A DNA stretch of 64,000 nt from an uncultured Alphaproteobacteria bacterium (GTDB lineage: Bacteria; Pseudomonadota; Alphaproteobacteria; RF32; CAG-239). Both the position numbers and the translations under genes were made by a program. Below are positions 1-37,328 of the stretch, in pieces. The stretch spans positions 1,093-65,092 of the forward strand of contig CALXPO010000022.1 in assembly GCA_944390315.1 (NCBI GenBank). The letters are read 5' to 3'. Positions within the stretch are counted from its first letter, which is position 1. Each line of letters starts with the position of its first letter. The notes below the pieces were generated by a model, which made no database searches, was not told where the DNA came from, and saw only the letters and a program-made list of their open reading frames with translations.

Positions 1-10
1 GAGCAGAACA

Positions 11-2254: not shown

Positions 2255-2332
2255 TTACAGAAATATGAATTTAATAAGTTTTGATTGAAAGTTTCTTGGT
2301 AAATTTTGCATTATAGCATATACTAAAAAAAG

Positions 2333-5220: not shown

Positions 5221-5256
5221 AAAAAACAAGGCTTTGGGCAAAACGCTCAAAGCCTT
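5221..5256 (-). terminator. intrinsic terminator after tRNA-Leu
   Basis: Stem aaggctttgggc/gctcaaagcctt followed by a U-run on the minus strand. Confidence 0.7.
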
Positions 5257-5266
5257 AGTTTTCAAA

Positions 5267-5353
5267 TGGTGCGCTAGGCCGGAATCGAACCGGCACGGCC
5301 TTGCGGCCAACAGATTTTAAGTCTGCAGCGTCTACCAGTTCCGCCACAAGCGC
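5267..5353 (-). tRNA. tRNA-Leu(TAA)
   Basis: Reverse complement GCGCTTGTGGCGGAACTGGTAGACGC...CTTAAAA...long variable arm...GGTTCGATTCC...ACCA; 87 nt, encoded CCA. Confidence 0.95.
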
Positions 5354-5554
5354 AAAATCTACCAAACTTTATACAGATAAAAATCTATAAATGCAATAAT
5401 AAACTTTAAATATTTTATAAAAATAACCTTTATAGGGGAATATAACGATTAATGACTTGTAAACATTAAAAAAATATGCTTTCTTGTAAACGGTAATATG
5501 CGGCAGAAACAGCGTTTCGGCATATGATGCAAAATTCTTTAGAAAGGAAAAACA

Positions 5555-6262
5555 ATGAAAACTGTTGATATTTCATGGCGTCGCTATGTGTTGCCAAATA
5601 TAAACAAAGAAGGATGGAAATTCTTTGGCATCTTTGCGGCAGTAACAGCGTTACTGGCAATGATTTGGGAACCTTTAGGCGTAATCGGGTTGGTTTGCAC
5701 CGTTTGGTGCTATTATTTTTTCCGTGATCCGGAAAGAGTAACTCCAGAAATTAAAGATGTCGTTGTGTCTCCGGCAGACGGTATTGTGCAGATGATTACT
5801 AAAGTTAAAGCACCCGAAGAGTTAGATCTAGGAGACGAAGAATATACACGTGTCAGCGTGTTTATGAGTGTTTTTAATGTCCATGTTAATCGCGCTCCGG
5901 CAGAAGGAACTATCACTAAAGCTGTTTATGTGCCCGGAAAATTTGTAAATGCTACTTTGGACAAGGCCAGTAAAGATAATGAACGTCAATTGCTTGCAAT
6001 GAAAACAACATCGGGTAAACAAATTGTCTTTGTACAAATTGCAGGGCTTATTGCACGCCGTATTCTATGCTTTGCCAAGCCGGGAGATAAATATAAAGCC
6101 GGAGAACGCTTTGGTCTAATTCGTTTTGGTTCGCGTTTGGATGTTTATTTGCCGGCAGGTGTAGAACCACAGGTTTGTTTGGGACAAACTATGGTTGCCG
6201 GTGAAACCGTGATTGCAAACTTATCCGCCGAACAATCAACTGTAAAAGGAGTTATCAGATAA
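5555..6262 (+). CDS. psd: phosphatidylserine decarboxylase
   Basis: [25 protein letters not shown] and RFGSR self-cleavage motif; adjacent to pssA. Confidence 0.95.
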
Positions 6263-12211: not shown

Positions 12212-13354
12212 ATGGATTGCAACTTGTCCAGTATTTGCGGAGGGTGCTCTTTGCGGCATCTGGAAGAAAAACAATATCGGCAATATAAAATTGATTTGGT
12301 AAAAAAGGCGTTGCAATCCATTACCCGGCAGAATTTCGTTTTGAATTATCCTATTTTTATTGGTGAAGGGGTGCGCCGCCGCGCCAGTTTTGCCTTTAGG
12401 CGTTCTAAAGGAAGAATTCTTTTAGGTTTTAATGCTTTTCATAGTAACGAAATCGTTGATTTGTCATTTTGCCCGCAGTTGACGGCAAGACTTAACCGCA
12501 ATTTGGATTTTTTTCGCAATCTGCTTGCGGAAATTTGTCGTACGCCGATAACGGTCAAAGAAGGCAAAAAGGGCAAAAGTAAAACGATTTATGTTGACAG
12601 CGGCGATTTATGGTTGACCGAAGCCGAAAACGGCATTGATGCGGTGCTGGAATTTAATTGCCCTCTAAATTTGGACTTGCGTCAGATTATTTTTGAACAA
12701 GTTTCCGCCAATGGTGATATTGTTCGTATATCACATCGTTTGAGTGCGGATAAACAATCGGAAACGATTATAGAAAAAGCGGCACCGTATATTGTGGCCG
12801 GACAAACGATGGTCTATATTCCGGCGGGAACATTTCTTCAACCTTCCAAAGAAGGACAAGAGGTTCTGACTGATTTGGTATTAAAATATGTCGGTTCGTC
12901 AGGCGGCAAAATAGCAGATTTGTTTTGCGGGGTCGGAACTTTTTCTTACCCGTTGGCAACCGATAAAAATAATAAAATCACGGCGGTGGATTCGTCGTCG
13001 GCTTTGCTGGAAGGTTTCAAAATTTCAATAAATCGGCAAATGATAAGCAATATTGAAATTATCAATCGCAATTTGTTTAAATATCCTTTGGATGAAAAAG
13101 AGTTAGCTCCCTTTGATGTCGTTGTTTTTGATCCGCCGAGAGCCGGAGCAAAAGAGCAAGTTGCCAAATTAGCGCACATGTCAGAGGAAAAACGTCCGAA
13201 CAGACTGGTGGCGGTGTCTTGTAATCCAGAAACTTTTGCCCGCGATGCCGAAATTTTGCAAAACGGCGGATATACTTTGCGCGAGGTAACGCCGGTAGAC
13301 CAATTTGTTTATACGTCGCATTGCGAGTTGGTCGCCTATTTTGAAAAAAATTGA
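12212..13354 (+). CDS. RNA (uracil-5)-methyltransferase, RlmD/TrmA family
   Basis: CxxxxxCGGC Fe-S motif, FLQPS, DLFCGVG, DPPRAG, VSCNP, DQF..HCE; no TRAM domain. Confidence 0.88.
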   Translation: MDCNLSSICGGCSLRHLEEKQYRQYKIDLVKKALQSITRQNFVLNYPIFIGEGVRRRASFAFRRSKGRILLGFNAFHSNEIVDLSFCPQLTARLNRNLDFFRNLLAEICRTPITVKEGKKGKSKTIYVDSGDLWLTEAENGIDAVLEFNCPLNLDLRQIIFEQVSANGDIVRISHRLSADKQSETIIEKAAPYIVAGQTMVYIPAGTFLQPSKEGQEVLTDLVLKYVGSSGGKIADLFCGVGTFSYPLATDKNNKITAVDSSSALLEGFKISINRQMISNIEIINRNLFKYPLDEKELAPFDVVVFDPPRAGAKEQVAKLAHMSEEKRPNRLVAVSCNPETFARDAEILQNGGYTLREVTPVDQFVYTSHCELVAYFEKN

Positions 13355-13440
13355 TATAAACAATTCCGCTTGCACTATTTACAAATTAAAAGCCTTTCTT
13401 TATATTTGAAAACATACTAACAAATATAAGGAAGAATTAA

Positions 13441-13935
13441 ATGTCAAAAAAGTTTTTTTTAGCCGCATTTGTATTGCTACTTTCGTCTTGTGCCGGTAAA
13501 CAAGAGGTTTTTGTGCATTATTGTCCGAATGTACAAATCGTGCCCGAATTCAGCCGTATGACGATTATGGCCGGCAAAGAGCCAGAAGCTAAAGTAGAAT
13601 TAATCGGTTATGAGGGGTATTGCCGCACCGATGTCCGTAATCAGGCTAAAGCCGTCGTCGCCCCGATTTTTGAAGTCTCCCGCTTAAACGAAACTTCGGA
13701 TAAAAAAGTTCGGTTTAGTTATTATACCGATACGGGTTCTAATAAAATAGTTATGCTTGGTAAGGAAAAACATTCTGTTGTTGTGGATGCTCCTAAAATC
13801 GGTGAAAAAATTATGTATCAGGGGGATTATGTCGAATTGAGAATTCCCGAAGATCAACCGGGTTATCCGATAAAATTGGGCTTGATGCTCAGCAACGCTC
13901 AATATCGCTATAATCGTATACATGGTATGCAATAA
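13441..13935 (+). CDS. hypothetical lipoprotein
   Basis: Signal peptide with lipobox LLSSC; CPNV motif. Confidence 0.7.
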   Translation: MSKKFFLAAFVLLLSSCAGKQEVFVHYCPNVQIVPEFSRMTIMAGKEPEAKVELIGYEGYCRTDVRNQAKAVVAPIFEVSRLNETSDKKVRFSYYTDTGSNKIVMLGKEKHSVVVDAPKIGEKIMYQGDYVELRIPEDQPGYPIKLGLMLSNAQYRYNRIHGMQ

Positions 13936-13948
13936 TCAGGAGAAAAAT

Positions 13949-15928
13949 ATGTCTTATAACAATCAGGCTTTGTCCTCACGTATGGCCAATGCGATTCGTT
14001 TTTTGTCAGTTGATGCCATCAATAAATCTAAATCCGGACACCCCGGAATGCCGCTCGGCATGGCAGACGTCGCAACCGTCTTGTTCGGTCGCTATATCAA
14101 AATCAATCCTGAGGCGCCGCATTGGTTTGACCGTGACCGTTTTGTCTTGTCTGCGGGACACGGCTCCATGTTGCTCTATTCTTTACTTTACCTCTTGGGT
14201 TACAAAGATATTTCAATTGAAGATATCAAAAATTTCCGCCAACTCGGTGCCAAAACAGCAGGACATCCCGAATATAAACATTTGGCAGGCGTGGAAATGA
14301 CGACCGGTCCGCTGGGACAGGGAATTGCTTCCGCCGTCGGTATGGCGATAGCCGAACGTCGCTTAAATGCCAAATACGGCAACGCTTTGTGCAATCACTA
14401 TACTTATGTGATTGCCGGTGACGGTTGCCTGATGGAGGGTATTTCCGAAGAAGCAATCGCTCTGGCCGGACATTGGAAATTAAATAAATTGATTGTCTTT
14501 TGGGATAACAACAATATCACCATCGACGGCACGGTCGACAAAGCCAGCTCGGTTGACCAGATTAAACGTTTTGAGGCGGCAGGTTGGAATACTTTGTCAG
14601 TCGACGGACAAAATCAAGAAGAAATTGCCGCCGCTATCGAAAAAGCACAAAAGTCCGACAAGCCGGTGTTAATTGCCTGCAAAACCACCATCGGATTCGG
14701 CTCGCCCAATAAGCAGGGGACAAGCTCTTGCCACGGTTCGCCTTTGGGAGAGGAAGAACGTGCTCTGATGGCAAAAGAATTGCAATGGACGGCCAAAGAA
14801 TTTGAAGTCCCTGCCGATGTGCTTGCCGCATGGCGCAAAGCCGGAGAGCGTTCTTATGAGGCTTGTGCCGCTTGGGAAAAGAAAGCCGCTGCTGCCGGTC
14901 AAAAATTTAATGACGAAATCAACGGCAAATTGCCCAAAAATTGGTTGAAATCGCTTAATGCTTTGAAAAATCAGGCAATTGCCGAACAAACCAAAGTTGC
15001 AACCCGTAAGGCTTCACAAATGTGTTTGGAAAAAATCGTTCCCGCCGTTCCGAGTATTATCGGCGGTTCGGCGGACTTGGCCGCTTCCAATCTGACTTTT
15101 GTGAAAGGCATGAAAACCATTACGGCCGAAGACTATGACGGTAACAACTTGATGTACGGTATTCGTGAACATGCCATGGGTGCCATTATGAACGGTATGG
15201 CTTTGCACGGCGGCGTAATTCCTTACGGTGGTACGTTCTTTGTCTTTTCCGACTATGTGCGTCCGTCGATTCGATTGGCGGCTTTAATGGGCTTGCGTGT
15301 CATTTATGTCTTAACTCACGATTCCATCGGTGTCGGCGAAGACGGTCCGACCCATCAGCCGATTGAGCATCTGGCATCATATCGCGCCATGCCCAATGTT
15401 TTGATGTTCCGTCCTTGTGATGTGGTTGAAACTGCCGAGGCTTGGCAGATTGCAATCGAAACCGAAAACAAACCGAGCCTGTTGGCTTTGAGCCGTCAAA
15501 ATCTGCCGATGCTCAGAACATCTGCCCGCCAAAACTTAACGGCAAAAGGCGGTTACGTTATTTCGGATGTCAGCAAAGGAGCACGCCGTCAGGCGACAAT
15601 TATTGCCACCGGTTCGGAAGTCTCATTGGCGGTTGAAGCACAAAAAATGTTGCATGAACAAGGGATTGAAGTCGCTGTTGTTTCCATGCCTTGTACCGAG
15701 TTGTTTGATGCCCAAGATGAAAAATATCGTAAAAAAGTATTGGGCAGAGCACCGCGTGTTGCCGTAGAAGCCGCAGCCAAATTCGGTTGGGAAAAATATG
15801 TCGGCGATAAGGGTACGATTATCGGAATGGACGGTTTCGGTGCTTCGGGACCGGCATCCGAATTGTATAAACATTTTGGCATTACGGCCGAAGCGGTAGT
15901 TGATGCCGTGAAAGCATATTGTCGTTAA
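13949..15928 (+). CDS. tkt: transketolase
   Basis: SGHPGMPLG, RDRFVLSAGH, GDGCLMEG, YGIREH, THDSIGVGEDGPTHQP. Confidence 0.98.
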   Translation: MSYNNQALSSRMANAIRFLSVDAINKSKSGHPGMPLGMADVATVLFGRYIKINPEAPHWFDRDRFVLSAGHGSMLLYSLLYLLGYKDISIEDIKNFRQLGAKTAGHPEYKHLAGVEMTTGPLGQGIASAVGMAIAERRLNAKYGNALCNHYTYVIAGDGCLMEGISEEAIALAGHWKLNKLIVFWDNNNITIDGTVDKASSVDQIKRFEAAGWNTLSVDGQNQEEIAAAIEKAQKSDKPVLIACKTTIGFGSPNKQGTSSCHGSPLGEEERALMAKELQWTAKEFEVPADVLAAWRKAGERSYEACAAWEKKAAAAGQKFNDEINGKLPKNWLKSLNALKNQAIAEQTKVATRKASQMCLEKIVPAVPSIIGGSADLAASNLTFVKGMKTITAEDYDGNNLMYGIREHAMGAIMNGMALHGGVIPYGGTFFVFSDYVRPSIRLAALMGLRVIYVLTHDSIGVGEDGPTHQPIEHLASYRAMPNVLMFRPCDVVETAEAWQIAIETENKPSLLALSRQNLPMLRTSARQNLTAKGGYVISDVSKGARRQATIIATGSEVSLAVEAQKMLHEQGIEVAVVSMPCTELFDAQDEKYRKKVLGRAPRVAVEAAAKFGWEKYVGDKGTIIGMDGFGASGPASELYKHFGITAEAVVDAVKAYCR

Positions 15929-26644: not shown

Positions 26645-28576
26645 CTATTCATGCAAGTGCGGCATTTGAGCTTCTTGTTTCAATGCGGCAACAAAGTCTT
26701 CCAACTTCATAACTTCTTGTTTATCAGAGCCCAAACGACGTACGGTAACCGTTCCGTTTTCTTTTTCTTTGGCGCCGACAACGGCAATGACCGGAATTTT
26801 GGCTACGGAATGTTCACGAATTTTATAGTTAATTTTTTCATTGCGTAAATCTGTTTTGGCATAAAGTCCGGCTTCACGCAATTTGGCTGCAACTTCTTCG
26901 GCATAATCATCGAATTCGCTGACAATCGGAGCAACGACGACTTGTTCCGGAGAGAGCCAGAGCGGTAATTTTCCGGCATGGTTTTCAATCAAAATGCCCA
27001 AAAAGCGTTCGATTGAACCGAACAAAGCACGGTGCAACATAACGGGTTGATGTTTTTCGCCATCTTCGCCGATATAAGAAATATCAAAACGTTGCGGCAA
27101 GTTCATATCTACTTGAATTGTACCGCATTGCCATTCACGACCGATAGCGTCTTTCAAAATGAACTCAAGTTTTGGTCCATAGAAAGCGCCTTCGCCTTCA
27201 TTGATTTCATATTTATATCCGTGAGAGGTCAGGGCGTTGGCAAGAGCGTTTTCGCACAAATCCCAAATTTCGTCGGAACCAATACGATAAATACTGTCAG
27301 GACGGGTAGAAAGATAAATTTTTACATCTTCAAAGCCAAAGTCTTTGTAGATATCTAAAATTAACTTTAAGGTTGTAATACATTCATCTTCCATTTGTTC
27401 GGGTGTGCAGAAGATGTGGGCATCATCTTGAGTAAATTCGCGTACGCGCATCAAACCCATTAACGAGCCGGAAGCCTCATAGCGGTTAACTTTACCAAAT
27501 TCAGCTATTCTGAGGGGCAAATCGCGGTAAGATTTGATTCCTTGTTTATAAACCAATAATCCGCCCGGGCAGTTCATAGGTTTAATGCAGAACCATTTTT
27601 TTTCTTCGGTCTGACCGGAGTAGTTGTGAGCACCGTATTTATCCCAGTGACCGGAAATTTCCCATAAAACTCTATCCATAACGCGAGGGGTTGAGATTTC
27701 GATATAACCGTTATGTTCTTGGCGGTTACGCATATATTCAATCAATTTGCGATAGATTTTGTAGCCTTTGTCGTGCCAAAAAACGGCTCCCGGCGCATAC
27801 TCTGGTTCAAAGTGGAACAAGTCCATTTCTTTGCCCAATTTGCGGTGGTCACGTTTTTCGGCTTCTTCAAGCATTGTCAGGTAATCTTGCAAATCTTTTT
27901 TGTTGGCCCAAGCTGTTGCATAAATACGTTGCAACATTTCACGGTTGGAGTCGCCGCGCCAATAAGCCCCGGCCACTTTAGTCAATTTGAAAGCGTCGCC
28001 GATTTTTCCGGTTGAAGGAACGTGAGGTCCGCGGCAAAGGTCGGTGAAGTTGCCTTGAGAATAAAGGGAGATAACTTCCGATTCGGGAAGGTCTTCAATC
28101 AATTCGACTTTGTAATGTTCGCCGATGGATTTGAAATATTCAATAGCTTCGTTTCTGGGCAAAACTTTGCGGGAAACTTTTTCGTCACGTTTAACGATTT
28201 CGTGCATTTTAGCTTCGATTTGTGCAAAATCTTCGGTTGTAAAAGGTTCTTTGCGAGCAAAATCGTAATAAAAACCGTTTTCGATAGCCGGTCCAATGGT
28301 AACTTGTACATCGGGCCACAGTTCTTTAACGGCTTCAGCCATGACGTGAGAGCAAGAGTGACGCAAGATAGCCAAACCATCTTTATCTTTAGATGTGATA
28401 ACGGTTACGGTCGCATCGGTTGTGATCGGAGTGCTGAGATCTTGCAATTTATCATTAACCTTCACCGCTAAAGCATTTTTTGCTAAACCGGCACTTATTT
28501 TTTCGGCGATTTCCAAACCGGAAACGGCGCCGTCGAAATTCATAATACTGCCATCCGGCAATTTTATAGCAACCAT
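26645..28576 (-). CDS. thrS: threonine--tRNA ligase
   Basis: TGS domain, RHSCSH, DLCRGPH, RDHRKLG, KPMNCP, MRVREFTQDDAH, HRALFGSIERF. Confidence 0.98.
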   Translation of the reverse strand: MVAIKLPDGSIMNFDGAVSGLEIAEKISAGLAKNALAVKVNDKLQDLSTPITTDATVTVITSKDKDGLAILRHSCSHVMAEAVKELWPDVQVTIGPAIENGFYYDFARKEPFTTEDFAQIEAKMHEIVKRDEKVSRKVLPRNEAIEYFKSIGEHYKVELIEDLPESEVISLYSQGNFTDLCRGPHVPSTGKIGDAFKLTKVAGAYWRGDSNREMLQRIYATAWANKKDLQDYLTMLEEAEKRDHRKLGKEMDLFHFEPEYAPGAVFWHDKGYKIYRKLIEYMRNRQEHNGYIEISTPRVMDRVLWEISGHWDKYGAHNYSGQTEEKKWFCIKPMNCPGGLLVYKQGIKSYRDLPLRIAEFGKVNRYEASGSLMGLMRVREFTQDDAHIFCTPEQMEDECITTLKLILDIYKDFGFEDVKIYLSTRPDSIYRIGSDEIWDLCENALANALTSHGYKYEINEGEGAFYGPKLEFILKDAIGREWQCGTIQVDMNLPQRFDISYIGEDGEKHQPVMLHRALFGSIERFLGILIENHAGKLPLWLSPEQVVVAPIVSEFDDYAEEVAAKLREAGLYAKTDLRNEKINYKIREHSVAKIPVIAVVGAKEKENGTVTVRRLGSDKQEVMKLEDFVAALKQEAQMPHLHE

Positions 28577-28600
28577 TATCTTATCCTTTTAATTAAAATT

Positions 28601-29755
28601 TTATTTCATATTTATAAGTTCGTTATAAACCGCAATAGTTTTATCACACATAATCTTTTTTGTAAAATTATCTCTGACATTTTTAATTGCGGCGGCGGAG
28701 ATTTTTTTCTTTTCCTCCAAGGGGAGGTCGAGAGCCCATTCAAGCGCATCCGCCAACGCTTGCGGGTTATTGCTTTCAAATAATTTTCCGGTAACGCCGT
28801 CGATGGTATTTTCGAGCGAACCGCCGATATTTGAAGCAATGACGATTTTTCCCATAGCTTGTCCTTCAATGGCGGCTCGTCCGAATGCTTCGGGCTCAAT
28901 AGCCGTAGACAAGACGATGTCCGAAACCATTAACAAGGCTGGGATATCAAAACTTTGACCGATAATTTTGACTTTGTGTTCCAGACCATATTTTTTAATC
29001 ATATCTTTAAGTTCTTCGGTATATTTGACGCGTCCCTGATCGGAGCCGACAATCATGCAGAAAAAGTCACGGTCTTTAATTTTAGCGAGAGCTTCGAGTA
29101 ACAAATGTTGACCTTTCCAACGAGTAATACGTCCGACGAGAGAAATAATCGGCAAGTCTTCAGGTATCTGATTTTCTTGAATGGTGCGAATAATACGTTC
29201 TTGTGAAACAGCACCGGGTGAAAATTTGTCAATATCGACGCACCGCGGAATGAGTCTGATTTTATTTTCATCAACCTGATAGTTATCAATCATATGTTTT
29301 TTGATATGATTGGAAATGGCGATAACAAGTTGTCCGTAAGTCATGACGCGGTTATAAAATTTTTTAATTCCTCTGGGACCCAAGCCGTATGTTCCGTGGA
29401 AGGTTGTTAAAAATTTAACACCGGCGCGTTTGGCTGCCCAATAAGCACTCCAAGCCGGAGCGCGTGAGCGAGCATGTACGATATTAATCCCGTTTTCTTT
29501 GATTATTTTTTCCAATTTTAATGAATTAAGATAAATTTTTATCGGATTTTTGGTTTTTAACGGCAGCGTAAAATGAGGAACTTTAATTTTATCTAATTCG
29601 TATTCCATACGACCGCCTGCAGAAGCGACGAAATTTTTAATTTCGGCATCTTGCAAAGCAGAAGCGATTTCGATTGTTCCCATTTCGACACCGCCGTGGT
29701 TGAGTTCGGGTAGGACTTGTAGAACAACTGGTTTTTGTACTTTACCTTTTTCCAT
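28601..29755 (-). CDS. glycosyltransferase family 4
   Basis: GGVEMG, HARSRAPAW, GRITRWKGQ, EAFGRAAIEGQAMG. Confidence 0.92.
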   Translation of the reverse strand: MEKGKVQKPVVLQVLPELNHGGVEMGTIEIASALQDAEIKNFVASAGGRMEYELDKIKVPHFTLPLKTKNPIKIYLNSLKLEKIIKENGINIVHARSRAPAWSAYWAAKRAGVKFLTTFHGTYGLGPRGIKKFYNRVMTYGQLVIAISNHIKKHMIDNYQVDENKIRLIPRCVDIDKFSPGAVSQERIIRTIQENQIPEDLPIISLVGRITRWKGQHLLLEALAKIKDRDFFCMIVGSDQGRVKYTEELKDMIKKYGLEHKVKIIGQSFDIPALLMVSDIVLSTAIEPEAFGRAAIEGQAMGKIVIASNIGGSLENTIDGVTGKLFESNNPQALADALEWALDLPLEEKKKISAAAIKNVRDNFTKKIMCDKTIAVYNELINMK

Positions 29756-29809
29756 TTTCTTAATATAATCCTCGCAGTTTTAAATTAATTTATGTTGGAC
29801 CGACTAATT

Positions 29810-30553
29810 ATGTCAAAGTACACTTTTAAATCTTGCTTTGCAACAGATTTTGAACATATTGCGCCAAAAAATAATGCACCGACGATTTTATATCTGCATG
29901 GTTTTTGTTCGGATTGCTGGGGAAAGAAGCCTGAAACGGTCAAATGCTTTTGTTTGGAGCATGGTGTGGGGTTGTTTCGTTTTGATTATGCGGGACACGG
30001 GTCGGATAGAGAAAATTTGGATAAAGCCGATTTCGAAATTTGGAAAAGTCAGGTTTTAGAAGTCATTGACGAAGCCATAACGGGAGATGTGGTCTGTGTC
30101 GGCTCTTCCATGGGCGGCTGGCTGTCACTGATTGCGGCAATAGCGCGTCCCGAGCGTGTTAAAGGTGTGGTAGGCTTGGCGGCGGCGCCGAATTTTGTGA
30201 AAAGATTTGCCTCAATGGTCACGGCCGAACAAAAAGCCGATTTGGCGCAAAAAGGTCAGTTTAGTTTTGGTAATAAAGATTTTACTTATACGATTACCCA
30301 AAGATTTATAGATACGGCTTTTCAGAATTGTTTGCCCGAAAACGAAAAATCGTGGCCGATAGATTGTCCGGTGCATTTTATTCAAGGAATGCAGGATGCC
30401 AGTCTGCCATGGCAATGTGCTTTGGATTTTGTGCGGGCCGTCCGCTCCGAAAATGTTGAGCTGAAATTGCTCAAAGCCTCCAATCACCGCCTAAATGATG
30501 ATGATGCACAGACAGAATTGCTTAATTCTTTGGCAAAGGTTGTGAATATCTGA
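29810..30553 (+). CDS. alpha/beta hydrolase
   Basis: HGFCSD, FDYAGHG, GSSMGG nucleophile elbow, QGMQD, NHRL. Confidence 0.9.
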   Translation: MSKYTFKSCFATDFEHIAPKNNAPTILYLHGFCSDCWGKKPETVKCFCLEHGVGLFRFDYAGHGSDRENLDKADFEIWKSQVLEVIDEAITGDVVCVGSSMGGWLSLIAAIARPERVKGVVGLAAAPNFVKRFASMVTAEQKADLAQKGQFSFGNKDFTYTITQRFIDTAFQNCLPENEKSWPIDCPVHFIQGMQDASLPWQCALDFVRAVRSENVELKLLKASNHRLNDDDAQTELLNSLAKVVNI

Positions 30554-30574
30554 AAAAATTGCTTTTTATAATAA

Positions 30575-31996
30575 GTGAAAAAAGACTACTCTAAAATAAA
30601 AAATGATGTAAATCAGGTGAGAAAAGTGAAACAGCAAAAAAAACATTATTCATGTGCTCAAGGTTTGGCCGCTGCCGCGGTCAGTTTTGCTCTGGGTTTG
30701 GCGGTCATCTTGTTTGCGGCGGCCGCGTTAACTGACCGGCGACCGACAATCAATGTATATGAAACTTCGGAAAGCCGAGACGGCGCGCGTCGTGCCGAAG
30801 AGATATTTTTGGCCAAACGCATTGTGAATGTGTTGGAACCTTTAGTCGGCAAAAATAAAGTAAAAGCCGAAGTTTCACTCGATGTCGATTATGATACCGT
30901 TGCCACCAGCGAAGAAATGTATGATCCAAACGGACAGGTCTTGCGTTCGTATAAAGCGGCACAAAATTTTGCCAGCGAGGGCGAATATGCCCTTAACAAA
31001 TATAATCGACTGATTGTCCAAAACGGCGGACAAATTAAACAAATGTCGGTTCTGGTTTTGATTGAAGGAGTTAAAAAAGGTGATGAATATTTTGCTCATT
31101 CTTCAAACGAACTCAATGCTTATGCCGCTTTAATCACACCGGTTATCGGTTTTGTTGCCGAACGCGGCGACAGATTGCAAATCGAAAATTATCGTCCGCA
31201 AAATTCATCTTCTTTTGTTTCGGCTAACTGGGGCTGTTTGCTCGGTATTATCATAATTTTGATTTTACTGTGGTTGATTAACAAAAAACCGCAAGAAAAA
31301 ACACCAAACAAAAAAAATCAACTGCCTTTATGGGATAAATTGGAACAGTCGGATGGTAAGAGCCTTGCCGAGTTTTTACGGAATGAAAATCCTGCAATAA
31401 CGGCTTATGTCCTCGGAAAACTCAGTCCCGATACGGCTTCATCCGTGCTCAATGCACTGCCGATGGCAACAGCCGTTGATGTTCTGTTGGCCATGAGCGA
31501 AAATGCGCCGATAACACGAGAAGTTGCAAAAGCCATAGAGCAATCTTTGACAAACTCATTGTTTCAAGAAAAAAAACGTGAACGTCAAAGTGTTTATAAA
31601 CTCTTTTCTTTGATGAATTTGACTAAACAAAAACAAATGCTGGAAGTCTTGGAAAAACAGAATTCACCTTTGGCTGATAAATTACGTGAACTGATGTTTA
31701 ATTTTGAAGATTTTGTGAATGTCTCTGACAAAGATATCAGACGTCTGTTCGATGATGTTGAAGCCGAAAGATTAGCCGTAGCCTTGCGCGGTGCTTCCGA
31801 AAAATTAAAACAACATCTTTTTGCCAATATGTCTTCGGCAGCGGCGGAATATGTTCAAAAACAGATGAATGAAATGGGACCTGTACGTCTGATTGAAGTT
31901 GAAAAAGCTCAGGCAGAAATTATCTGTTTGGCACAATCTTTGGCATCCCGCGGAAAAATAAGTCTGGACGATACAAAGAGCGGAGGTCGACATTAA
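30575..31996 (+). CDS. truncated FliF (RBM3 ring domain)-FliG (middle and C-terminal domains) fusion protein
   Basis: TM (aa ~29-52); FliF C-terminal motifs LEPLVG..KVKAEVSLDVDYD, EEMYDP..VLRS, IKQMSVLVLI, IGFVAERGD; second TM (aa ~218-235); FliG motifs WDKL..LRNENP, MFNFED, ALRGA, NMS..MGPVRL. Confidence 0.88.
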   Translation: MKKDYSKIKNDVNQVRKVKQQKKHYSCAQGLAAAAVSFALGLAVILFAAAALTDRRPTINVYETSESRDGARRAEEIFLAKRIVNVLEPLVGKNKVKAEVSLDVDYDTVATSEEMYDPNGQVLRSYKAAQNFASEGEYALNKYNRLIVQNGGQIKQMSVLVLIEGVKKGDEYFAHSSNELNAYAALITPVIGFVAERGDRLQIENYRPQNSSSFVSANWGCLLGIIIILILLWLINKKPQEKTPNKKNQLPLWDKLEQSDGKSLAEFLRNENPAITAYVLGKLSPDTASSVLNALPMATAVDVLLAMSENAPITREVAKAIEQSLTNSLFQEKKRERQSVYKLFSLMNLTKQKQMLEVLEKQNSPLADKLRELMFNFEDFVNVSDKDIRRLFDDVEAERLAVALRGASEKLKQHLFANMSSAAAEYVQKQMNEMGPVRLIEVEKAQAEIICLAQSLASRGKISLDDTKSGGRH

Positions 31997-32415
31997 TGGT
32001 CCAAAAAGAGATTGAGTCCAATAATATAAAAATTACGGATGAAAATGCTCCCGCCGTTTTAGATTTGTCAATTAATCGTCCTTTTGTTCCAAAATTTGAA
32101 CCCGATGAGCAAAATAATCAACAATTACTCAGTCGCATACAAGAGCTTTTGCAACAAACTAAAAAAGAAGCTAAGGATAAACAGAACAGATTTGAAAATT
32201 TTCCGCTTGATATGACAGTAGAATTCGGTCAAATTGAGATAAACAATAGTGATTTGAAAAACATAGAAAACGGCATTGATACAAAAGTTAAGCACAATAT
32301 CGGCGATAATGTCAATATTTGCTTAAACGGTCATCTTGCTGCTAAGGGAAAGCTCATGTCAAAAGATGGCAAACTTGGCGTATTGTTGACCCAGATAGTA
32401 AAAATCGAGGAGTAA
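31996..32415 (+). CDS. FliN/FliM C-terminal (SpoA) domain protein
   Basis: PLDMTVEFG..NICLNGHLAAKGKL..GKLGVLLTQI pattern; ATG overlaps the stop of the fusion gene. Confidence 0.8.
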   Translation: MVQKEIESNNIKITDENAPAVLDLSINRPFVPKFEPDEQNNQQLLSRIQELLQQTKKEAKDKQNRFENFPLDMTVEFGQIEINNSDLKNIENGIDTKVKHNIGDNVNICLNGHLAAKGKLMSKDGKLGVLLTQIVKIEE

Positions 32416-32417
32416 AA

Positions 32418-33365
32418 ATGCGAATAAAAAAATTCGTCGATAACGATATGATACGTTTAATGCACCGTGTTAAAGAAGAGTTGGGAGACGAAGCGGTTAT
32501 TGTATCTACATCACAAACGGCTGACGGACGCAGTGAATTGGTTGCGGCTGTTGAAACGGATGATGTTGAATTTTCGGATAAGGACGAACCACAAATTTAT
32601 GCGGCTTCATATAGCGATGCCGTCATTCGCGAACGTCTTGATTTTCACGAAACAGGAGCTTTGGCACAGGCAAAATTACTGTCTTTATGTCGCCGCAAAG
32701 CTATTGAGGCAAATCTGAAAGATGATGCCGAAATTTTAACGTCTGTTTTGAGTGATTTGTTTACCACGTATGACATTTTGGATAAAATTCACCCCATAAA
32801 AGTTTTTGTCGGTTTACAAGGAAGCGGAAAAACGACAGCCTTGGTTAAAACGGCGGCTTTAGCTCATTTTAAGGGTCTGTCTGCGGCTATTGTCAGTATG
32901 GATACGGTTAGAGCCGGAGCCAATGCGCAATTACGAGCTTTTGCAGGGATTCTGGGCGTGGAGTTTAATCCGCTGACACATGCTAAAGAATTGCTGCAAA
33001 CGATTCGACAGGCGAGCGCAACAAATGATTTGGTGCTGGTTGATACTCCCGGATTAAATCCGTTTTCAGCAGATGACAATGAGCGTCTTAAAGAGCTTGT
33101 TGCAGAGTCAGGCGGAGAAACCATATTAACACTTGATGCCGGATATAATGCTTATGATGCAGGAGAAACCGGATTTTTGTTTGCGCAAGCCGGTGCAACA
33201 TGTTTGCTTCCGACAAAATTAGATTTATGCCGAAGAATGGGCGGGTTGCTGTCAGCAGCGGTAGAAGGAGGTTTTCGTTTGGGCTGGGCATCGGTCAGTT
33301 CCAATATAACTAATGGGTTAACATCTTTGGATATGCCGTCATTGGCGCGGGCTCTGTTGGCTTAG
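32418..33365 (+). CDS. flhF: FlhF-like SRP-family GTPase
   Basis: N-terminal MRIKKF..VKEELGDEAVIVS; G1 GLQGSGKTT, DTVRAGANAQL, DTPG, TKLD. Confidence 0.88.
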   Translation: MRIKKFVDNDMIRLMHRVKEELGDEAVIVSTSQTADGRSELVAAVETDDVEFSDKDEPQIYAASYSDAVIRERLDFHETGALAQAKLLSLCRRKAIEANLKDDAEILTSVLSDLFTTYDILDKIHPIKVFVGLQGSGKTTALVKTAALAHFKGLSAAIVSMDTVRAGANAQLRAFAGILGVEFNPLTHAKELLQTIRQASATNDLVLVDTPGLNPFSADDNERLKELVAESGGETILTLDAGYNAYDAGETGFLFAQAGATCLLPTKLDLCRRMGGLLSAAVEGGFRLGWASVSSNITNGLTSLDMPSLARALLA

Positions 33366-33372
33366 GGGAGTT

Positions 33373-34176
33373 ATGATGGAGCAGTATATCAGAACAGATT
33401 TCAAAGATTTACGCTTACAACAAGCTAACCGAATGATTGCAATTGCCTCAGGCAAAGGCGGAGTCGGTAAAACGTGGTTTTCCATCACGTTAGCACATGC
33501 TTTGAGCGCGATGAAACAAAAAACACTGTTGTTTGACGGCGATTTGGGAATGGCCAATATTGATGTGCAATTAGGACTGATGGTGCCTTTTGATTTAGGA
33601 AATGTTGTTACCGGTGCCACAACGCTCAATCAGGTTGTCCATTATTGCGACAAGTGCAGATTTGATGTTATTGCCGGACGTTCCGGTTCGGGCGGATTGG
33701 CTTCAATGCCGATAGGGCGGTTACAAATTTTGGCAGAAGATTTAGCATTGCTTTCGGGATCGTATGATAAAGTCATTTTAGATATGGGAGCAGGGGTCGA
33801 AAAATCGATTCGTATTTTATCAGGTATGTCCGGACGTGTGATTGTCGTATGTACCGATGAACCAACGGCCCTAACGGACGCTTATGCTTTTATCAAATTA
33901 ATGAATATGCAATATCCCAAATGCCGCTTGGAAGTCGTTGTTAATCAGGCCGAGAGCTTGCGTGAAGGTAAGCAGACATTTGACATTTTGCAAAAAGCAT
34001 GTCAAACCTTTTTAAAAATATCGCCGCCGTTGCTGGGAATTGTACGCCGAGATGCTCGTGTTCGTGATGCCATTCGCAGCCAGATGCCGCTAATCAGCCG
34101 TTACCCGACTTGCGAAGCCGCGGAAGATGTGATTGAAATAGCTCAAAAGATTTTGCAGGATGAAAAAAATGTATAA
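33373..34176 (+). CDS. flhG: FlhG/FleN MinD-like ATPase
   Basis: ASGKGGVGKT deviant Walker A, DGDLGMANID, DMGAG, EPTALTDAYAFIK; directly after flhF. Confidence 0.9.
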   Translation: MMEQYIRTDFKDLRLQQANRMIAIASGKGGVGKTWFSITLAHALSAMKQKTLLFDGDLGMANIDVQLGLMVPFDLGNVVTGATTLNQVVHYCDKCRFDVIAGRSGSGGLASMPIGRLQILAEDLALLSGSYDKVILDMGAGVEKSIRILSGMSGRVIVVCTDEPTALTDAYAFIKLMNMQYPKCRLEVVVNQAESLREGKQTFDILQKACQTFLKISPPLLGIVRRDARVRDAIRSQMPLISRYPTCEAAEDVIEIAQKILQDEKNV

Positions 34177-35320
34177 TCAAGATCCTTTAGAATATTATCA
34201 AATTTTGGATGTTTCGCCCGATGCCGATGCAAAGACCATCAAACTTCATTATCGGGATAAAGCAAAAGAATGGCATCCCGATTATAACAAAGCTGAGGAT
34301 GCAATAGAACATTTTCAAAAACTCTCCGTGGCATATGATATATTGCAAGACGAGAATAAGCGTTTGCGATATGACTTGCTGGCCTGCATTTATGATAAAG
34401 ATAATTTTCCTCAGATGGATGCGCTGAGCATTTTGAAAGATAGGATGAACGAAGAAAATCCAGATGTCCGAGCTTTTGACTTACGTTATGTTTTCGGCAA
34501 GATTATTAAATTTTCACATCGTGAAGAGCGTCTTATTTGTACGGAAAAGCAAGCACTTAATGAAATTCTGAAATGTTCTCTGTCTAACTGGCTTTGCGGC
34601 TGGTGGGGAATAAAATCTTTCGCAGTCAATTGTCGGGCTCTGATTGCCAATTATAAACATATCGGTACCAATCGGCAGGACAATTTAACCGTATTATTGC
34701 ATAATGCTTTAGCCTATGATGAAGAAAAAAAGGAAAAAAAATCGCTTTACTCTGCAATCTTAGCTTTGGAATATGCTTTGCCCGAGCAACGTCCGTTGAT
34801 AGAACGTTTTATTAAAAGGTTAGGCGGAAAAGTTCAAAAGCCGCCGCGTTGGCGTTGGTTTAGGTTAAAAGCCGCTAATTTACTAGTACCGTTTATTCTG
34901 TTGATGGTTATCTTGTCGCCGATTGCAAATTCTGTGTTTGGCGGCCTGCAACAATATGTCAGAAAAGAAAACGAAATTACCTATTTTCAAAAAGTTCAAT
35001 TTAACAATGGCGGTGAAACTTTTGATGATATTGTCGTTTCTAAGATTTTTGATATTCCGGTTGATATTTATGATGACAAGATGCTTTATCACCTCAAAGC
35101 CGATACGGATGTGATGTATGGTCCGGGAGACAAATTTGATGTTATGGCGAAAGGAGTTGAGGGACAAACGGTTCGTTTAACCGGATTTACGCCGGATAAG
35201 AGTTGGTATAGGATTATGCTTGATAACGGTGAAATGGGTTTTGTTGAGAAAAACGCTGTTGAACAAGGTATGGGTAAAGCGCCGTCCATCGGGAGCAAAA
35301 TCGTGGCCGAAACACGATAA
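34160..35320 (+). CDS. J-domain membrane protein with C-terminal SH3-like domain
   Basis: YYQILDV..WHPD..AYDIL J domain; WLCGWWGI; TM LLVPFILLMVILSPI; C-terminal YGPG..V..G..WYRIML..GEMGFV. Confidence 0.82.
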   Translation: MKKMYNQDPLEYYQILDVSPDADAKTIKLHYRDKAKEWHPDYNKAEDAIEHFQKLSVAYDILQDENKRLRYDLLACIYDKDNFPQMDALSILKDRMNEENPDVRAFDLRYVFGKIIKFSHREERLICTEKQALNEILKCSLSNWLCGWWGIKSFAVNCRALIANYKHIGTNRQDNLTVLLHNALAYDEEKKEKKSLYSAILALEYALPEQRPLIERFIKRLGGKVQKPPRWRWFRLKAANLLVPFILLMVILSPIANSVFGGLQQYVRKENEITYFQKVQFNNGGETFDDIVVSKIFDIPVDIYDDKMLYHLKADTDVMYGPGDKFDVMAKGVEGQTVRLTGFTPDKSWYRIMLDNGEMGFVEKNAVEQGMGKAPSIGSKIVAETR

Positions 35321-35326
35321 TCAGAT

Positions 35327-35761
35327 TTATTTAATCGGTTCAAATTCCCACGGAAAAACCAACCATCGTCCGGCTTTTTTGGCAGCCGCGGGAAAGTCAA
35401 GTTCAGCATTGGGATTTTTGCAAAAAATGACGGCAATTTTAGCTTTGGGATATTTTTCTTTCAAGTAACGATAGGTACTTCCTGAATCGTATAAATCATC
35501 AACAAACAATGTATTTTCATCCATACTGATTTCGGGAGGAACCAAACATTTAATTTTGGACTGTTGCTCTCCTTCGTAACTGGCAAGGGAAATACTGCTG
35601 ATTTCTCTGATATTGAGCATTTGTGCTAAAATACAAGCGGGAACGAGACCGCCGCGAGCCACGGCGATTATTCTTTTAAAGTTGCCGTCTTTGAGAATTT
35701 GAGCCAATTTTGCACATTCGGCATTAACTTCTTCGTAAGTGATGAATTCTTTATCGGGCAT
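35327..35761 (-). CDS. gpt: xanthine-guanine phosphoribosyltransferase-like protein
   Basis: AVARGGLVPA, PRPP motif FVDDLYDSGST, WLVFPWE; aagga RBS. Confidence 0.82.
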   Translation of the reverse strand: MPDKEFITYEEVNAECAKLAQILKDGNFKRIIAVARGGLVPACILAQMLNIREISSISLASYEGEQQSKIKCLVPPEISMDENTLFVDDLYDSGSTYRYLKEKYPKAKIAVIFCKNPNAELDFPAAAKKAGRWLVFPWEFEPIK

Positions 35762-35762
35762 A

Positions 35763-36557
35763 TTATTTGTCTCCTTTAAGGCTGAATTGTTCAATTGATT
35801 TTGCCAGACCGGTGTGGTTATCAATATCGACGGCGATTCCCCAAACGGTACCGTTGGTTCGACATACTTCCAAGCGATTGCCGTTATATTTTTGACAAAG
35901 CCGATCTATGGGAGCTTGTTTGTCAAAACCTAAAACAGAATCATAGTTGCCGCACATGCCGACATCGGTAATATATGCGGTACCGCCGTTTAAGATGTGA
36001 GCATCGGCAGTCGGAACATGGGTATGGGTGCCGGCGACGATAGAAACTCGACCGTCGAGATAATGTCCGAGTGAAAGTTTTTCGGAAGTACATTCGGCAT
36101 GTACATCCACCAAAATGGCGTCGATATTACGTCCGAGGGCATAATTTTTGAGCAACTTATCGAGGACAAAAGCGGGATTGTCGACATTTTCCATAAAGAC
36201 GCGTCCCAAGACTTGGGTAACTAATATTTTTTTGCCGTTTGCCAGTTCAAAGACGACAGCTCCGTGTCCGGCAGCTGTTTCGGGATAGTTAAGCGGACGG
36301 ACGATTTGTTTGGATTCATCTAAGAAAGGAATAATTTCTCGCTGTTGCCAAACGTGATTACCCGTTGTCAGTATATCGGCCCCTTTTTCCAAGAAATCTT
36401 TAGCAATTCCTGGGGTAACGCCAAAGCCGTGAGCAGCATTTTCGACATTGATGATTATGACATCGGCTTTAAATTTATCGCGAATGACAGGGAGATTGTT
36501 AAGGACGGCATCTCTGCCGGCTCTTCCGACAACATCACCACAATAGACAATTTTCAA
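35763..36557 (-). CDS. YmdB/TIGR00282 metallophosphoesterase
   Basis: GDVVG, NVENAAHG, TTGNH, DVHAE, GTHTH, TDVGMCG; TTG start after ggag. Confidence 0.92.
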   Translation of the reverse strand: MKIVYCGDVVGRAGRDAVLNNLPVIRDKFKADVIIINVENAAHGFGVTPGIAKDFLEKGADILTTGNHVWQQREIIPFLDESKQIVRPLNYPETAAGHGAVVFELANGKKILVTQVLGRVFMENVDNPAFVLDKLLKNYALGRNIDAILVDVHAECTSEKLSLGHYLDGRVSIVAGTHTHVPTADAHILNGGTAYITDVGMCGNYDSVLGFDKQAPIDRLCQKYNGNRLEVCRTNGTVWGIAVDIDNHTGLAKSIEQFSLKGDK

Positions 36558-36625
36558 AATTTTCTCCGTAAGATTATTAAAAAAACTCCGATAACCGGAG
36601 TTTGCGTAACAGCAAATGATAAAAA

Positions 36626-36787
36626 GGAGAGAGAACCGTCGGGCCGTATATGATACATTCTGTCTCGAACCGCATCTCACTAGGTGGGCACCATATAACA
36701 AAACCACGATTTTGCCAGAGACAGTTCCCTAAAATATAACGTTGGCTCGGAAGATCTGCGGAATTACGCACCAAACAGTCCTCTCTA
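36626..36787 (-). ncRNA. ssrS: 6S RNA
   Basis: About 160 nt downstream of zapA (canonical locus); 5' agagaggactgt pairs with 3' acggttctctct; internal gggaactgtctctgg and ggtgcccacct motifs resemble alphaproteobacterial 6S. Confidence 0.8.
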
Positions 36788-36799: not shown

Positions 36800-37138
36800 C
36801 TATAATGATTCGATTTGATTTGCAACAGCTTTTATTGTTTCGCTAAGGGCTTTTATCTTAAGAGAGATATCGTTATCCAAAGCCGTATAATCGATAGTTG
36901 AGTTTTGGGGTTCGGCTGTTTTTGCGGCAAGCAACTTGCGTGTTTCGAACAAGTCATCGGCGACAAGAATGCCGATCATGGCCAAGAGCATATTTTCGCT
37001 GATTTTTCCGCTGATACCTTTAAGTAATTTTGCTTTTTCATCTAAGACGGAGGCAAGCTGCATAATACGAGCTTCTTGTCCGTTTTCGCAAGCGATGGCA
37101 TATTCACGGGAGTTAATTGTTATTGTTACCTGAGCCAT
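36800..37138 (-). CDS. zapA: cell division protein ZapA
   Basis: MAQVTITINSREYAIACENGQE..LLAMIGILVADDL. Confidence 0.92.
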   Translation of the reverse strand: MAQVTITINSREYAIACENGQEARIMQLASVLDEKAKLLKGISGKISENMLLAMIGILVADDLFETRKLLAAKTAEPQNSTIDYTALDNDISLKIKALSETIKAVANQIESL

Positions 37139-37328
37139 TTTTTGTTCCTGCTGGATTGAGTTTGTTAATAAGCGCATCAATTTGGTTAATGGACTGCATT
37201 GTATATTTTTTAAGATTATTTATTTTATCTTTTTTGGTTTCTGCAATGACTTGCAACCGTTTAACGTTATTTTCTAACTCATGGAGAGCGTCAGCGGTTT
37301 GTTTAAAATGAGAGAAATCATTATCCAT
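37113..37328 (-). CDS. small coiled-coil protein upstream of zapA (DUF4164-like position)
   Basis: 71-aa heptad-rich ORF overlapping the zapA start; conserved alphaproteobacterial position. Confidence 0.65.
   Translation of the reverse strand: MDNDFSHFKQTADALHELENNVKRLQVIAETKKDKINNLKKYTMQSINQIDALINKLNPAGTKNGSGNNNN

Follow-up and report, generated by a model that had tools for sequence, protein, structure and literature searches.

A Flagellum-Derived Five-Gene Operon as a Candidate Non-Motile FlhF/FlhG Module in an Uncultured Gut Alphaproteobacterium

Introduction

The window analyzed here is a stretch of 64,000 nucleotides (nt) of contig CALXPO010000022.1 (GenBank assembly GCA_944390315.1) from an uncultured alphaproteobacterium. 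At positions 30575-35320 it contains an operon of five tightly packed open reading frames (ORFs) on the + strand, which encode relatives of the flagellar ring and rotor proteins FliF, FliG and FliN, of the placement proteins FlhF and FlhG, and a membrane protein featuring a J-domain. A preliminary description, derived from the nucleotide sequence alone, regarded the operon as a flagellar locus that has collapsed to the subset needed for a polar ring scaffold, i.e., as a basal body exapted for spatial regulation. The present analysis addresses the gene products, the genome and relatives of the carrier, the selection acting on the operon, and its occurrence in a second lineage.

Organization of the Operon

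The first ORF (30575-31996, +) encodes a 473-amino-acid (aa) fusion of the RBM3/collar region of FliF with the M and C domains of FliG, as recognized from the ORF listing, Pfam, an AlphaFold model and Foldseek. It overlaps by 1 nt with the second ORF (31996-32415, +), whose product of 139 aa joins a FliH-like N-terminus to the SpoA domain of FliN (Pfam FliMN_C, alignment). Following a gap of 2 nt, flhF (32418-33365, +) encodes an SRP-type GTPase of 315 aa, assigned via Pfam, NCBIfam, its motifs and synteny, and a further 7 nt downstream flhG (33373-34176, +) encodes a MinD-type ATPase of 267 aa (Pfam, Walker A motif, synteny). The last ORF (34160-35320, +) overlaps flhG by 17 nt and encodes a 386-aa protein composed of a J-domain, a transmembrane (TM) segment and an SH3b domain (Pfam, model, Foldseek). 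The spacing in the ORF listing (-1, +2, +7 and -17 nt) and the ORF calls match exactly the preliminary description, which had given five ORFs that overlap or lie at most 7 bp apart. The NCBIfam models agree in direction with these assignments (FliG, FliF, FliN, FlhF, MinD); since every equivalog score falls under its cut-off, all five proteins are divergent members of their families.

The FliF::FliG Fusion Protein

Pfam matches the fusion with YscJ_FliF_C (PF08345, 3.2e-19), FliG_M (1.1e-14) and FliG_C (2.9e-35), and a profile search revealed the operon copy as the sole FliG_C in the whole genome. According to an AlphaFold model built with 15 natural homologues (mean predicted local distance difference test score, pLDDT, of 66.7), a first predicted TM helix (residues 27-53; 30653-30733, +), whose hydrophobic stretch is kept in 15 of 15 homologues, is followed by a periplasmic alpha/beta RBM3-like domain (residues 68-206; 30776-31192, +), which bears a short collar-like insert and is also recognized by Foldseek and as a conserved alignment block. 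A second predicted TM helix (residues 218-235; 31226-31279, +) leads to the middle (252-326) and C-terminal (340-458) domains of FliG, both of which are helical (31328-31948, +; Pfam, model). In Foldseek, the cytoplasmic part resembles FliG MC structures (4fhr_B at 3.8e-14, 1lkv and 1qc7, probability 1.00), with template modeling scores of 0.86-0.95 for FliG_C alone, and the periplasmic part resembles the RBM3/collar region of the FliF S-ring (6sd1_A, 7cg7_A and 7d84_A at about 1e-06, probability 1.00, TM-target about 0.55). The modelled RBM3-like domain is a putative ring-building unit. Within the genus, the ring protein occurs in two forms: type A, comprising the window and nine other species genomes, possesses the RBM3 domain, while type B (nine species genomes) is a TM hairpin carrying FliG_MC only and is accompanied by a bare FliN of 78-88 aa.

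The fusion is devoid of RBM1/2, the domains that hold the export gate, as well as of the FliF C-tail and FliG_N, which are normally each other's binding partners. YscJ_FliF (PF01514), the family covering RBM1/RBM2, has no Pfam match in the window's fusion, compared with 4e-59 in the FliF of the flagellated sister. FliG_N, which binds the FliF C-tail, reaches E 0.075 in Pfam with no accepted stretch, and TIGR00207 covers profile positions 112-328 alone (133 versus a cut-off of 226.7).

When columns are compared with the canonical FliG of flagellated sisters, the FliM-binding motif, which is invariant there, proves degenerate in the type A fusion. Likewise, a FliG_C helix with the pattern K..R..ED..R, invariant in the sisters, shows in type A an exchange of R for A, D or E and of ED for K followed by Q, E or K, and in type B an exchange of ED for EA. 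This helix, whose columns were taken from the invariant pattern of the sister genera, is presumably the stator-facing torque helix of the E. coli work. The degenerate FliM motif and the lost torque-helix charges thus fit a loss of FliM and stator. A functional motor with a fused rotor was considered and rejected, as neither a stator plug nor FliM was found in the genome and the charges of the torque helix are gone.

The FliN Protein and Its FliH-Like N-Terminus

Pfam FliMN_C matches the 139-aa protein at 1.9e-09, with the SpoA domain comprising residues 65-135. According to the alignment, its N-terminal block recurs in the proteins encoded in the fliH position and in the 176-aa remnant of them that is kept by other species of the genus; the window's copy of this block has a degenerate aromatic motif, followed by a conserved stretch. 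The 253-aa sister protein in the fliH position itself matches FliH (PF02108) only weakly (E 0.03). Owing to the shared block, the 139-aa protein is to be described as FliH-like-N::SpoA and hence as a second in-frame fusion. The trimmed FliN of the preliminary description is therefore a FliN with respect to its SpoA domain, but not a plain truncated one.

Many species of the genus keep an ORF of 130-176 aa between the ring gene and fliN, which is missing from the window. Its sequence corresponds to the 253-aa protein in the N-terminal motif and over the C-terminal half, although FliI was not found in the window's genome; an example is L071:6477-7007 (+), and it takes the same place in L072, L076, L078, L080-L083, L085-L087, L090 and L092.

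FlhF and FlhG

FlhF matches the SRP54 GTPase family of Pfam at 1.5e-21 and scores 114.7 bits against TIGR03499 (cut-off 174.15), which marks it as a divergent member. Motifs G1, G3 and G4 are intact in it, as is the DTVRAGA stretch, G3 being altered in three relatives (L043 among them), and it is 40-43% identical to FlhF of flagellated sister genera. FlhG, the product of the most conserved gene of the operon, belongs to the CbiA/ParA/MinD type of Pfam and stays below the cut-offs of the MinD equivalog models. It features a deviant Walker A motif with the signature lysine and intact switch regions, and is 62-76% identical to FlhG of flagellated genera (70-74% in flagellated sister genera, where it holds the same cluster position). 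Alignment hence bears out the earlier statement that the G-motifs of FlhF and the Walker A of FlhG are intact. Neither in the window's FlhG nor in that of the sisters was the DQAxxLR motif seen, which is known as an N-terminal activator motif in Vibrio. In fully aflagellate genera, a derivative with 33-43% identity to the window's FlhG (34-41% in a further comparison) carries a Walker A without the signature lysine. A complex prediction for FlhG and residues 1-240 of the J-protein (11-row alignments), run without controls, scored 0.00 and was not used as evidence.

The J-Domain/TM/SH3b Protein

Pfam recognizes DnaJ (8.8e-19) and weakly SH3_3 in the J-protein. The model (mean pLDDT 84.6) divides it into a J-domain (residues 1-77), a beta-hairpin plus helical domain (104-221), a TM segment (233-270) and a periplasmic SH3b-like domain (276-369). 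The HPD motif (H39, P40, D41) is invariant in 11 of 11 sequences, and Foldseek matches of the J-domain reach a root-mean-square deviation of about 1 A. In the same searches the SH3b-like domain resembles those of cell-wall hydrolases, and the helical middle domain has no clear solved look-alike. The non-J part retrieved solely J-domain/SH3 protein clusters from the ESM Atlas (0.87-0.91) and nothing beyond its own family.

All 149 family genomes that were sampled, and the single genome of the sister family, encode the J-protein at full length. Its non-J part is seldom met in the class, with 9 carriers among 301 sampled genomes, the window's own included. In three distant families, fliN-flbD-flhA-flhF-flhG and a gene for a homologue of a 554-aa protein are likewise followed downstream by the J gene, twice as tandem paralogues (tandem J-domain/TM/SH3-like genes at L163:9576-11686, L164:7675-9850 and L166:9-1628). 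This recurrent position marks the J-protein as an ancestral, uncharacterized member of this type of flagellar cluster.

Absence of a Flagellum from Genome and Genus

The genome of the window comprises 1,556,089 bases on 27 contigs, with a completeness of 100 and a contamination of 1.05. Whole-genome profile searches yielded 0 matches for FlhA (PF00771), FlhB (PF01312), FliP (PF00813), the rod/hook family Flg_bbr_C (PF06429) and Flagellin_N (PF00669), nor did FliM (PF02154) or MotB_plug (PF13677) match anywhere in the genome, MotA itself not having been searched. FliI was not found in the genome either, as nothing exceeded the FliI/YscN cut-off of TIGR01026 (best 231 versus 379.5 bits). Control genomes gave matches for every family whose absence was tested. 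Moreover, tblastn with the FlgE, FlhA, sigma-54 activator, FliH-like and 554-aa proteins of the sister genus detected nothing in the genome outside of the operon. A complete flagellar gene set elsewhere, which the preliminary description had named as its refutation, was thus sought genome-wide and, by way of FlhA and rod/hook proteins, in 29 genomes of the genus, and none was found.

All of these genomes are metagenome-assembled, and the operon could in principle stem from a flagellated organism whose other flagellar genes reside on unbinned contigs. Such an assembly or binning artefact is nevertheless extremely improbable: FlhA and rod/hook proteins are missing from each of the 29 genomes of the genus (0/29 for either), 24 of which are at least 90% complete, flbD and flhA are gone from between fliN and flhF on one and the same contig, both in the window and in all 13 further genus loci holding fliN and flhF, and FliF and FliG are physically fused with their export-gate-binding domains deleted.

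Two further candidates were rejected, namely a type III secretion remnant, as the FHIPEP family, which covers FlhA, is without match anywhere in the genome, and a true Min system, as MinE was not found in the genome and FlhG lies below the MinD equivalog cut-offs. The genome also encodes PilP-like, GspE/PilB-like (551 aa), PilC/GspF-like, PilT-family, VirB10 and VirB11 proteins, all below equivalog cut-offs; these type IV pilus- or type II secretion system-like and VirB-type genes are located at G000:C11:50815-54616, G000:C27:81907-82884 and G000:C11:18714-20624. To regard these systems as alternative cargoes of the operon is pure speculation.

Origin of the Operon Within a Flagellar Cluster

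In the flagellated sister locus L056, the gene order is flgE-fliF-fliG-fliH-like (253 aa)-fliN-flbD (sigma-54 activator)-flhA-flhF-flhG-(554 aa)-J, with fliF encoding both YscJ_FliF and YscJ_FliF_C and fliG encoding the N, M and C domains. The window displays the same gene order with intervening genes and domains removed, and the succession threonyl-tRNA synthetase (ThrRS)-glycosyltransferase-hydrolase-ring-FliN-FlhF-FlhG-J is found in 18 loci of the genus, read as far as each contig reaches (L034 and L043 cover part only). The order and neighbourhood shared with the sister clusters show that the operon is an in-situ deletion product of a flagellar cluster. Lost in these deletions were flgE, RBM1/2 of FliF, the FliF tail together with FliG_N, the larger part of the fliH-like gene, and the genes flbD, flhA and that for the 554-aa protein; two in-frame fusions, FliF-RBM3::FliG_MC and FliH-N::FliN, were created thereby. 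The proposed collapse of a flagellar locus is thus borne out by sister genera which hold fliH-like, flbD and flhA between the same genes.

Across the family, FliG_C occurs in 90 of 149 genomes. Eleven genera possess a canonical FliG of 340-350 aa (about 145 bits), encoded roughly 8-9 kb from the J gene; in the window's genus FliG_C is present in 12 of 12 genomes at lower scores (71-120 bits), and seven genera without FliG_C keep only an FlhG-like gene and J. In these aflagellate genera, the FlhG-like and J genes are direct neighbours and adjoin a tRNA-guanine transglycosylase gene (L061-L066, e.g., L061:8677-9474 and 7521-8687). The 554-aa protein, which belongs to no Pfam family, is encoded between flhG and J in flagellated clusters of this family (L056:5513-7177, -) and of distant alphaproteobacterial families (homologues at L164:7038-7592 and L165:5924-6532) and is deleted in the window's genus. 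Named relatives are Alphaproteobacteria of the gut, uncultured and derived from humans, ruminants, chickens and mice, including "Azospirillum sp. 51_20", "uncultured Azospirillum sp.", "Proteobacteria bacterium CAG:495" and "Candidatus Scatocola faecigallinarum", which we take to belong to the gut order RF32 of GTDB.

Selection and Stepwise Reduction Within the Genus

In the 18 genus loci, tblastn identity to the window amounts to 83-96% for ThrRS, 63-87% for FlhG, 48-73% for J, 40-63% for FlhF, 27-41% for FliN and 22-47% for the ring protein. All 18 loci contain an intact ring ORF, and of the 17 loci that reach far enough all possess FlhG and J, 16 FliN and 13 FlhF; a loss of FliN in G018, suggested by tblastn, was rejected upon detection of a diverged 92-aa FliN-like ORF.

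Ratios of nonsynonymous to synonymous substitution rates (dN/dS; Nei-Gojobori method, NG86) were obtained for the seven closest pairs (own-gene dS <1.2), which represent three species groups (two type A, one type B), are therefore not independent, and do not include the window itself, as no pair close enough for a reliable estimate does. In these pairs, dN/dS is 0.075-0.179 for the ring gene, 0.018-0.070 for fliN (plus one value of 0.339 resting on very few changes), 0.035-0.136 for flhF, 0.000-0.024 for flhG and 0.045-0.117 for the J gene, compared with 0.007-0.058 for ThrRS and 0.037-0.165 for the neighbouring hydrolase as controls. Among all 50 pairs, no ring dN/dS reaches 1, the maximum of 0.583 occurring at saturated dS; in the window's own lineage dS is saturated versus every compared relative, rendering the ring values of 0.35-0.58 unreliable. 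The low ratios in close pairs indicate that all five genes are under purifying selection and not in neutral decay.

In a 30-row tree built on FlhG together with J, the genus forms a clade with a Shimodaira-Hasegawa-like approximate likelihood ratio test (SH-aLRT) support of 98, type A is supported at 100 and type B at 99, species without FlhF (97) are nested inside type B, and the fully aflagellate genera sit on long branches (1.2-1.6). Within the genus, reduction proceeds step by step, by loss of RBM3, then of FlhF and then of FliN. Of the signs of neutral decay named beforehand as refuting, a dN/dS near 1 is contradicted by purifying selection, and patchy loss is indeed seen but is nested, each state being under selection.

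The nested loss series also suits a slowly eroding relic, in which a lasting non-flagellar function would reside only in FlhG and J, while the fusion, FliN and FlhF would buffer or regulate FlhG and be lost one by one. This explanation gains from the seven family genera that keep just the FlhG-like protein and J, from the fast evolution of ring and FliN proteins and from the G3 changes in FlhF of some species, e.g., L043. On the other hand, the ratios of 0.08-0.18 (ring) and 0.02-0.07 (FliN) in type A and B pairs point to present-day constraint, ORFs are intact across a genus with saturated synonymous sites, and the four-gene set is found a second time, independently, in a different lineage, so that erosion of a relic is judged quite improbable.

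A Second Lineage and Other Rotor Fusions

An exhaustive search of 1.84 billion protein representatives returned 7,380 matches at E <= 0.001, only 16 of which reached E <= 1e-30. Among the top matches, P0026, P0027, P0028, P0030 and P0039 (454-552 aa) exhibit the reduced architecture and are 25-31% identical to each other. The locus L170, which holds a relative of P0027 and lies on a 2.28 Mb metagenomic contig with 67% GC, encodes a fusion of 507 aa, a FliN of 101 aa, an FlhF-like GTPase of 331 aa and FlhG in four contiguous genes with nothing in between. In a sample of 401 genomes of the class, G547 is the only carrier of an L170-type fusion (84% identity); this fragmented genome (590 contigs, 91% complete) gave 0 matches for FlhA and for rod/hook proteins and retains the FlhF-like gene at 76% identity. 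Two congeners of G547, in turn, possess FlhA (about 880 bits), five rod/hook matches each and a canonical FliG. In a FliG_MC tree (36 rows), which is only moderately secure owing to long branches, the second fusion groups with the canonical FliG of these congeners (SH-aLRT 85), inside a canonical clade (97) that excludes the types of the window's genus. The set of fusion, FliN, FlhF and FlhG therefore appears, by sequence comparison, to have arisen independently in this alphaproteobacterial lineage of 67% GC, and such a second occurrence argues for a function rather than an accident.

By eye, the L170 set adjoins genes for CtrA-like and ChpT-like cell-cycle regulators (12753-13478, +; 13553-14221, -). 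Public protein sets hold further natural rotor fusions, in which FliM is joined to DUF4116 repeats and FliG_M/C, FliG bears two FliG_C stretches, full FliF is joined to FliG_M/C, or a C-terminal block of FliF is joined to a complete FliG; proteins of this kind are P0033 (996 aa), P0024 (427 aa), P0117 (774 aa), and P0025 and P0051 (about 630 aa). FliF-FliG fusion mutants are also reported to exist in Salmonella.

A Putative Membrane Platform for the FlhF/FlhG Switch

Taken together, we consider it fairly likely that the operon is a remnant of a polar-type alphaproteobacterial flagellar cluster, which has been kept by selection as a working non-motile module, and this "half motor" probably does another job. 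The best reading of the sequences would be a selected, non-motile membrane platform centred on FlhF and FlhG; the more specific polar ring responsible for division-site setting is a conjecture. In the consulted parts of the literature, FlhF is described to bind FliG, FlhG to bind FliG, FliM, FliN or FliY as well as FlhF (PMC12826062), and FlhF to target FliF (PMC12826062, PMC3228812). The retained set coincides with this published contact network, which suggests a platform on which the FlhF/FlhG switch may still operate.

In such a platform, the fusion with its two TM helices would sit in the inner membrane, where its RBM3 domain may still oligomerize into an S-ring-like assembly that presents FliG_MC on the cytoplasmic face, and the SpoA domain of FliN would add to it. 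Given the known binding of FliG and targeting of FliF by FlhF, FlhF-GTP would place or nucleate the platform, while FlhG-ATP would dock on it and inactivate FlhF. The J-domain/TM/SH3b protein, whose gene has been next to flhG since the ancestral cluster, would link the system with both DnaK and the cell wall, in the manner of Vibrio HubP or SflA. The output would be neither torque nor secretion, but spatial or temporal control by FlhG of a non-flagellar target, possibly pole identity or division placement.

Several findings weigh against this interpretation. The ring protein, FliN and FlhF evolve much faster than their neighbours, with ThrRS as comparison. About half of the genus lacks the periplasmic RBM3 domain, and four type B species among the 17 loci are without flhF, one of these also without fliN; hence, not all species can depend on a ring as the essential element, and the earlier view of a ring scaffold as the needed subset is weakened, RBM3, FlhF and FliN being dispensable in parts of the genus. 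The usual bridge between FliG and FliN, FliM, was not found in the genome and its binding motif is degenerate in type A. As outlined above, the informative dN/dS pairs stem from three species groups, and the window's own lineage is saturated. In the second lineage, no J-protein is encoded next to flhG, and the absence of FlhA and rod/hook genes rests on the fragmented species genome G547, not on the 2.28 Mb record of L170. Finally, a true MipZ (260.7 bits) is encoded in the genome, which speaks against the division-site version of the platform. Of the exapted basal body proposed initially, the collapsed locus, the selection and the absent flagellum hold; an indispensable ring and a need for a division-site system do not.

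A broader hypothesis is put forward with considerable reserve: Alphaproteobacteria may have converged at least twice, after loss of the flagellum, on a minimal device, a self-assembling (polar) membrane ring or patch of two-TM FliF-RBM3::FliG_MC, FliN, FlhF and FlhG, which would serve as a landmark for FlhF/FlhG control of pole identity, division or the placement of envelope machines.

Comparison With Described Systems

The closest counterpart in gene content is the alphaproteobacterial cluster flgE-fliF-fliG-(fliH-like)-fliN-flbD-flhA-flhF-flhG (e.g., L056), with which the window shares order, strand and the neighbourhood at the J/YmdB end; the window differs by its deletions and two fusions, and the remainder of the flagellar regulon has been lost from its genome.

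In Campylobacter jejuni, FlhG together with FlhF and proteins belonging to the MS ring as well as the switch complex prevents polar division, a precedent that the preliminary description had invoked and that stands as stated in the consulted part of the report (PMC3228812). As there, a MinD-like FlhG occurs in the window alongside FlhF, FliF and FliN without a Min system, MinE not having been found in this genome (PMC3228812). An equivalent restraint of polar division by the present module would accord with the retention of four of the five C. jejuni factors, with the missing MinE and with a gene for the cell-division protein ZapA (36800-37180, -; Pfam 1.5e-15), which is located 1.5 kb downstream of the operon past a YmdB-like gene, maybe by coincidence. 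However, C. jejuni has complete flagella and, according to the same partial account, requires FliM but not FliG, whereas the window's genome has no flagellum genes beyond the operon and no FliM; FliG is kept in every species with any ring gene, no link from these proteins to FtsZ was found in this analysis, and MipZ provides a division-site system that is already there. The suggested check for minCDE and mipZ thus yielded no MinE but a MipZ, and there is hence no vacant division-site role for the operon to take over. We regard this explanation as rather unlikely; the lack of FliM and of complete polar flagella and the presence of another division-site system lower the case for membership in the C. 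jejuni type of FlhG control, not that for a similar way of working. The order J gene-YmdB is also found in flagellated sisters, and the proximity of ZapA may reflect inherited synteny rather than a functional link.

With respect to the fusion, an engineered Vibrio FliF-FliG fusion was described to form rings, indicating that a covalent link is compatible with MS-ring formation (PMC10941966). The engineered fusions, as far as the accessible description goes, are full-length proteins of about 100 kDa in working or assembling motors, whereas the natural protein of 473 aa lacks RBM1/2, the FliF tail, FliG_N and a motor.

The nearest described analogue of the J-protein would be SflA of Vibrio, a polar single-pass membrane protein of the DnaJ family which belongs to the FlhF/FlhG circuit with HubP as landmark (PMC7226244). 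Both proteins are bitopic, in the case of the window according to the model, with a cytoplasmic J-domain and a periplasmic domain, and SflA is tied to FlhF/FlhG and the pole (PMC7226244). Compared by description, SflA bears N-terminal periplasmic TPR/SLR repeats and a C-terminal J-domain, while the window's protein is reversed, with an N-terminal J-domain and a C-terminal periplasmic SH3b domain; moreover, sflA is described to lie outside of flagellar clusters, in contrast to the J gene beside flhG (PMC7226244). Another parallel is the flagellar type III secretion remnant of Lysobacter enzymogenes, where a subset of flagellar genes was kept after loss of motility and another function is suspected (PMC7688988). 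In the part of that report consulted, Lysobacter keeps the export apparatus, whereas the window has none and keeps rotor and placement proteins in fused and trimmed form (PMC7688988).

No description of the operon, or of flagellar genes of this gut lineage, was found in the literature searched, subscription journals and supplements lying outside. The component families are well known; their combination, i.e., rotor and placement switch without export gate, axial structure, FliM and stator, with two fusions and under purifying selection, was not encountered there. The earlier statement that no such system is described therefore holds for this literature, but not for sequence collections, given the reduced fusions among metagenomic proteins and the second lineage. 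The finding is richer than first described, adding two fusions, a graded reduction series and convergence, and the locus is a concrete, analyzable case. It offers a natural minimal construct for the interplay of FliF RBM3, FliG_MC, FliN, FlhF and FlhG without all else, as well as a graded series of living intermediates within one gut family, from the full cluster via type A, type B, loss of FlhF and loss of FliN to FlhG-like plus J. Attention is further drawn to the J-domain/TM/SH3b protein and the 554-aa protein, both of them conserved constituents of the flhF-flhG flagellar clusters of several alphaproteobacterial families.

Neighbouring Genes and Sequence Composition

Upstream, the operon is preceded by genes for an alpha/beta hydrolase (29792-30553, +; Pfam), a glycosyltransferase-like protein (28601-29755, -) and ThrRS (26645-28576, -), the latter two named by eye only. 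Downstream follow a phosphoribosyltransferase-like gene (35327-35824, -), likewise named by eye only, and ymdB (35763-36707, -; Pfam), and a coiled-coil ORF of 71 aa (37113-37328, -) precedes zapA. Within 28400-35900, a sigma-70 scan gave 20 promoter-like sites versus 17.1 +/- 3.8 in shuffled sequences, i.e., no excess, and a terminator scan gave 13 sites versus 8.6 +/- 3.3, which was likewise judged no excess. A look-up of RNA sequencing runs for 30575-35320 returned none, an outcome that speaks neither for nor against a function. The GC content of window positions 1-6000 is low (0.29-0.34, compared with about 0.40-0.48 elsewhere), and the GC skew is positive over the whole window.

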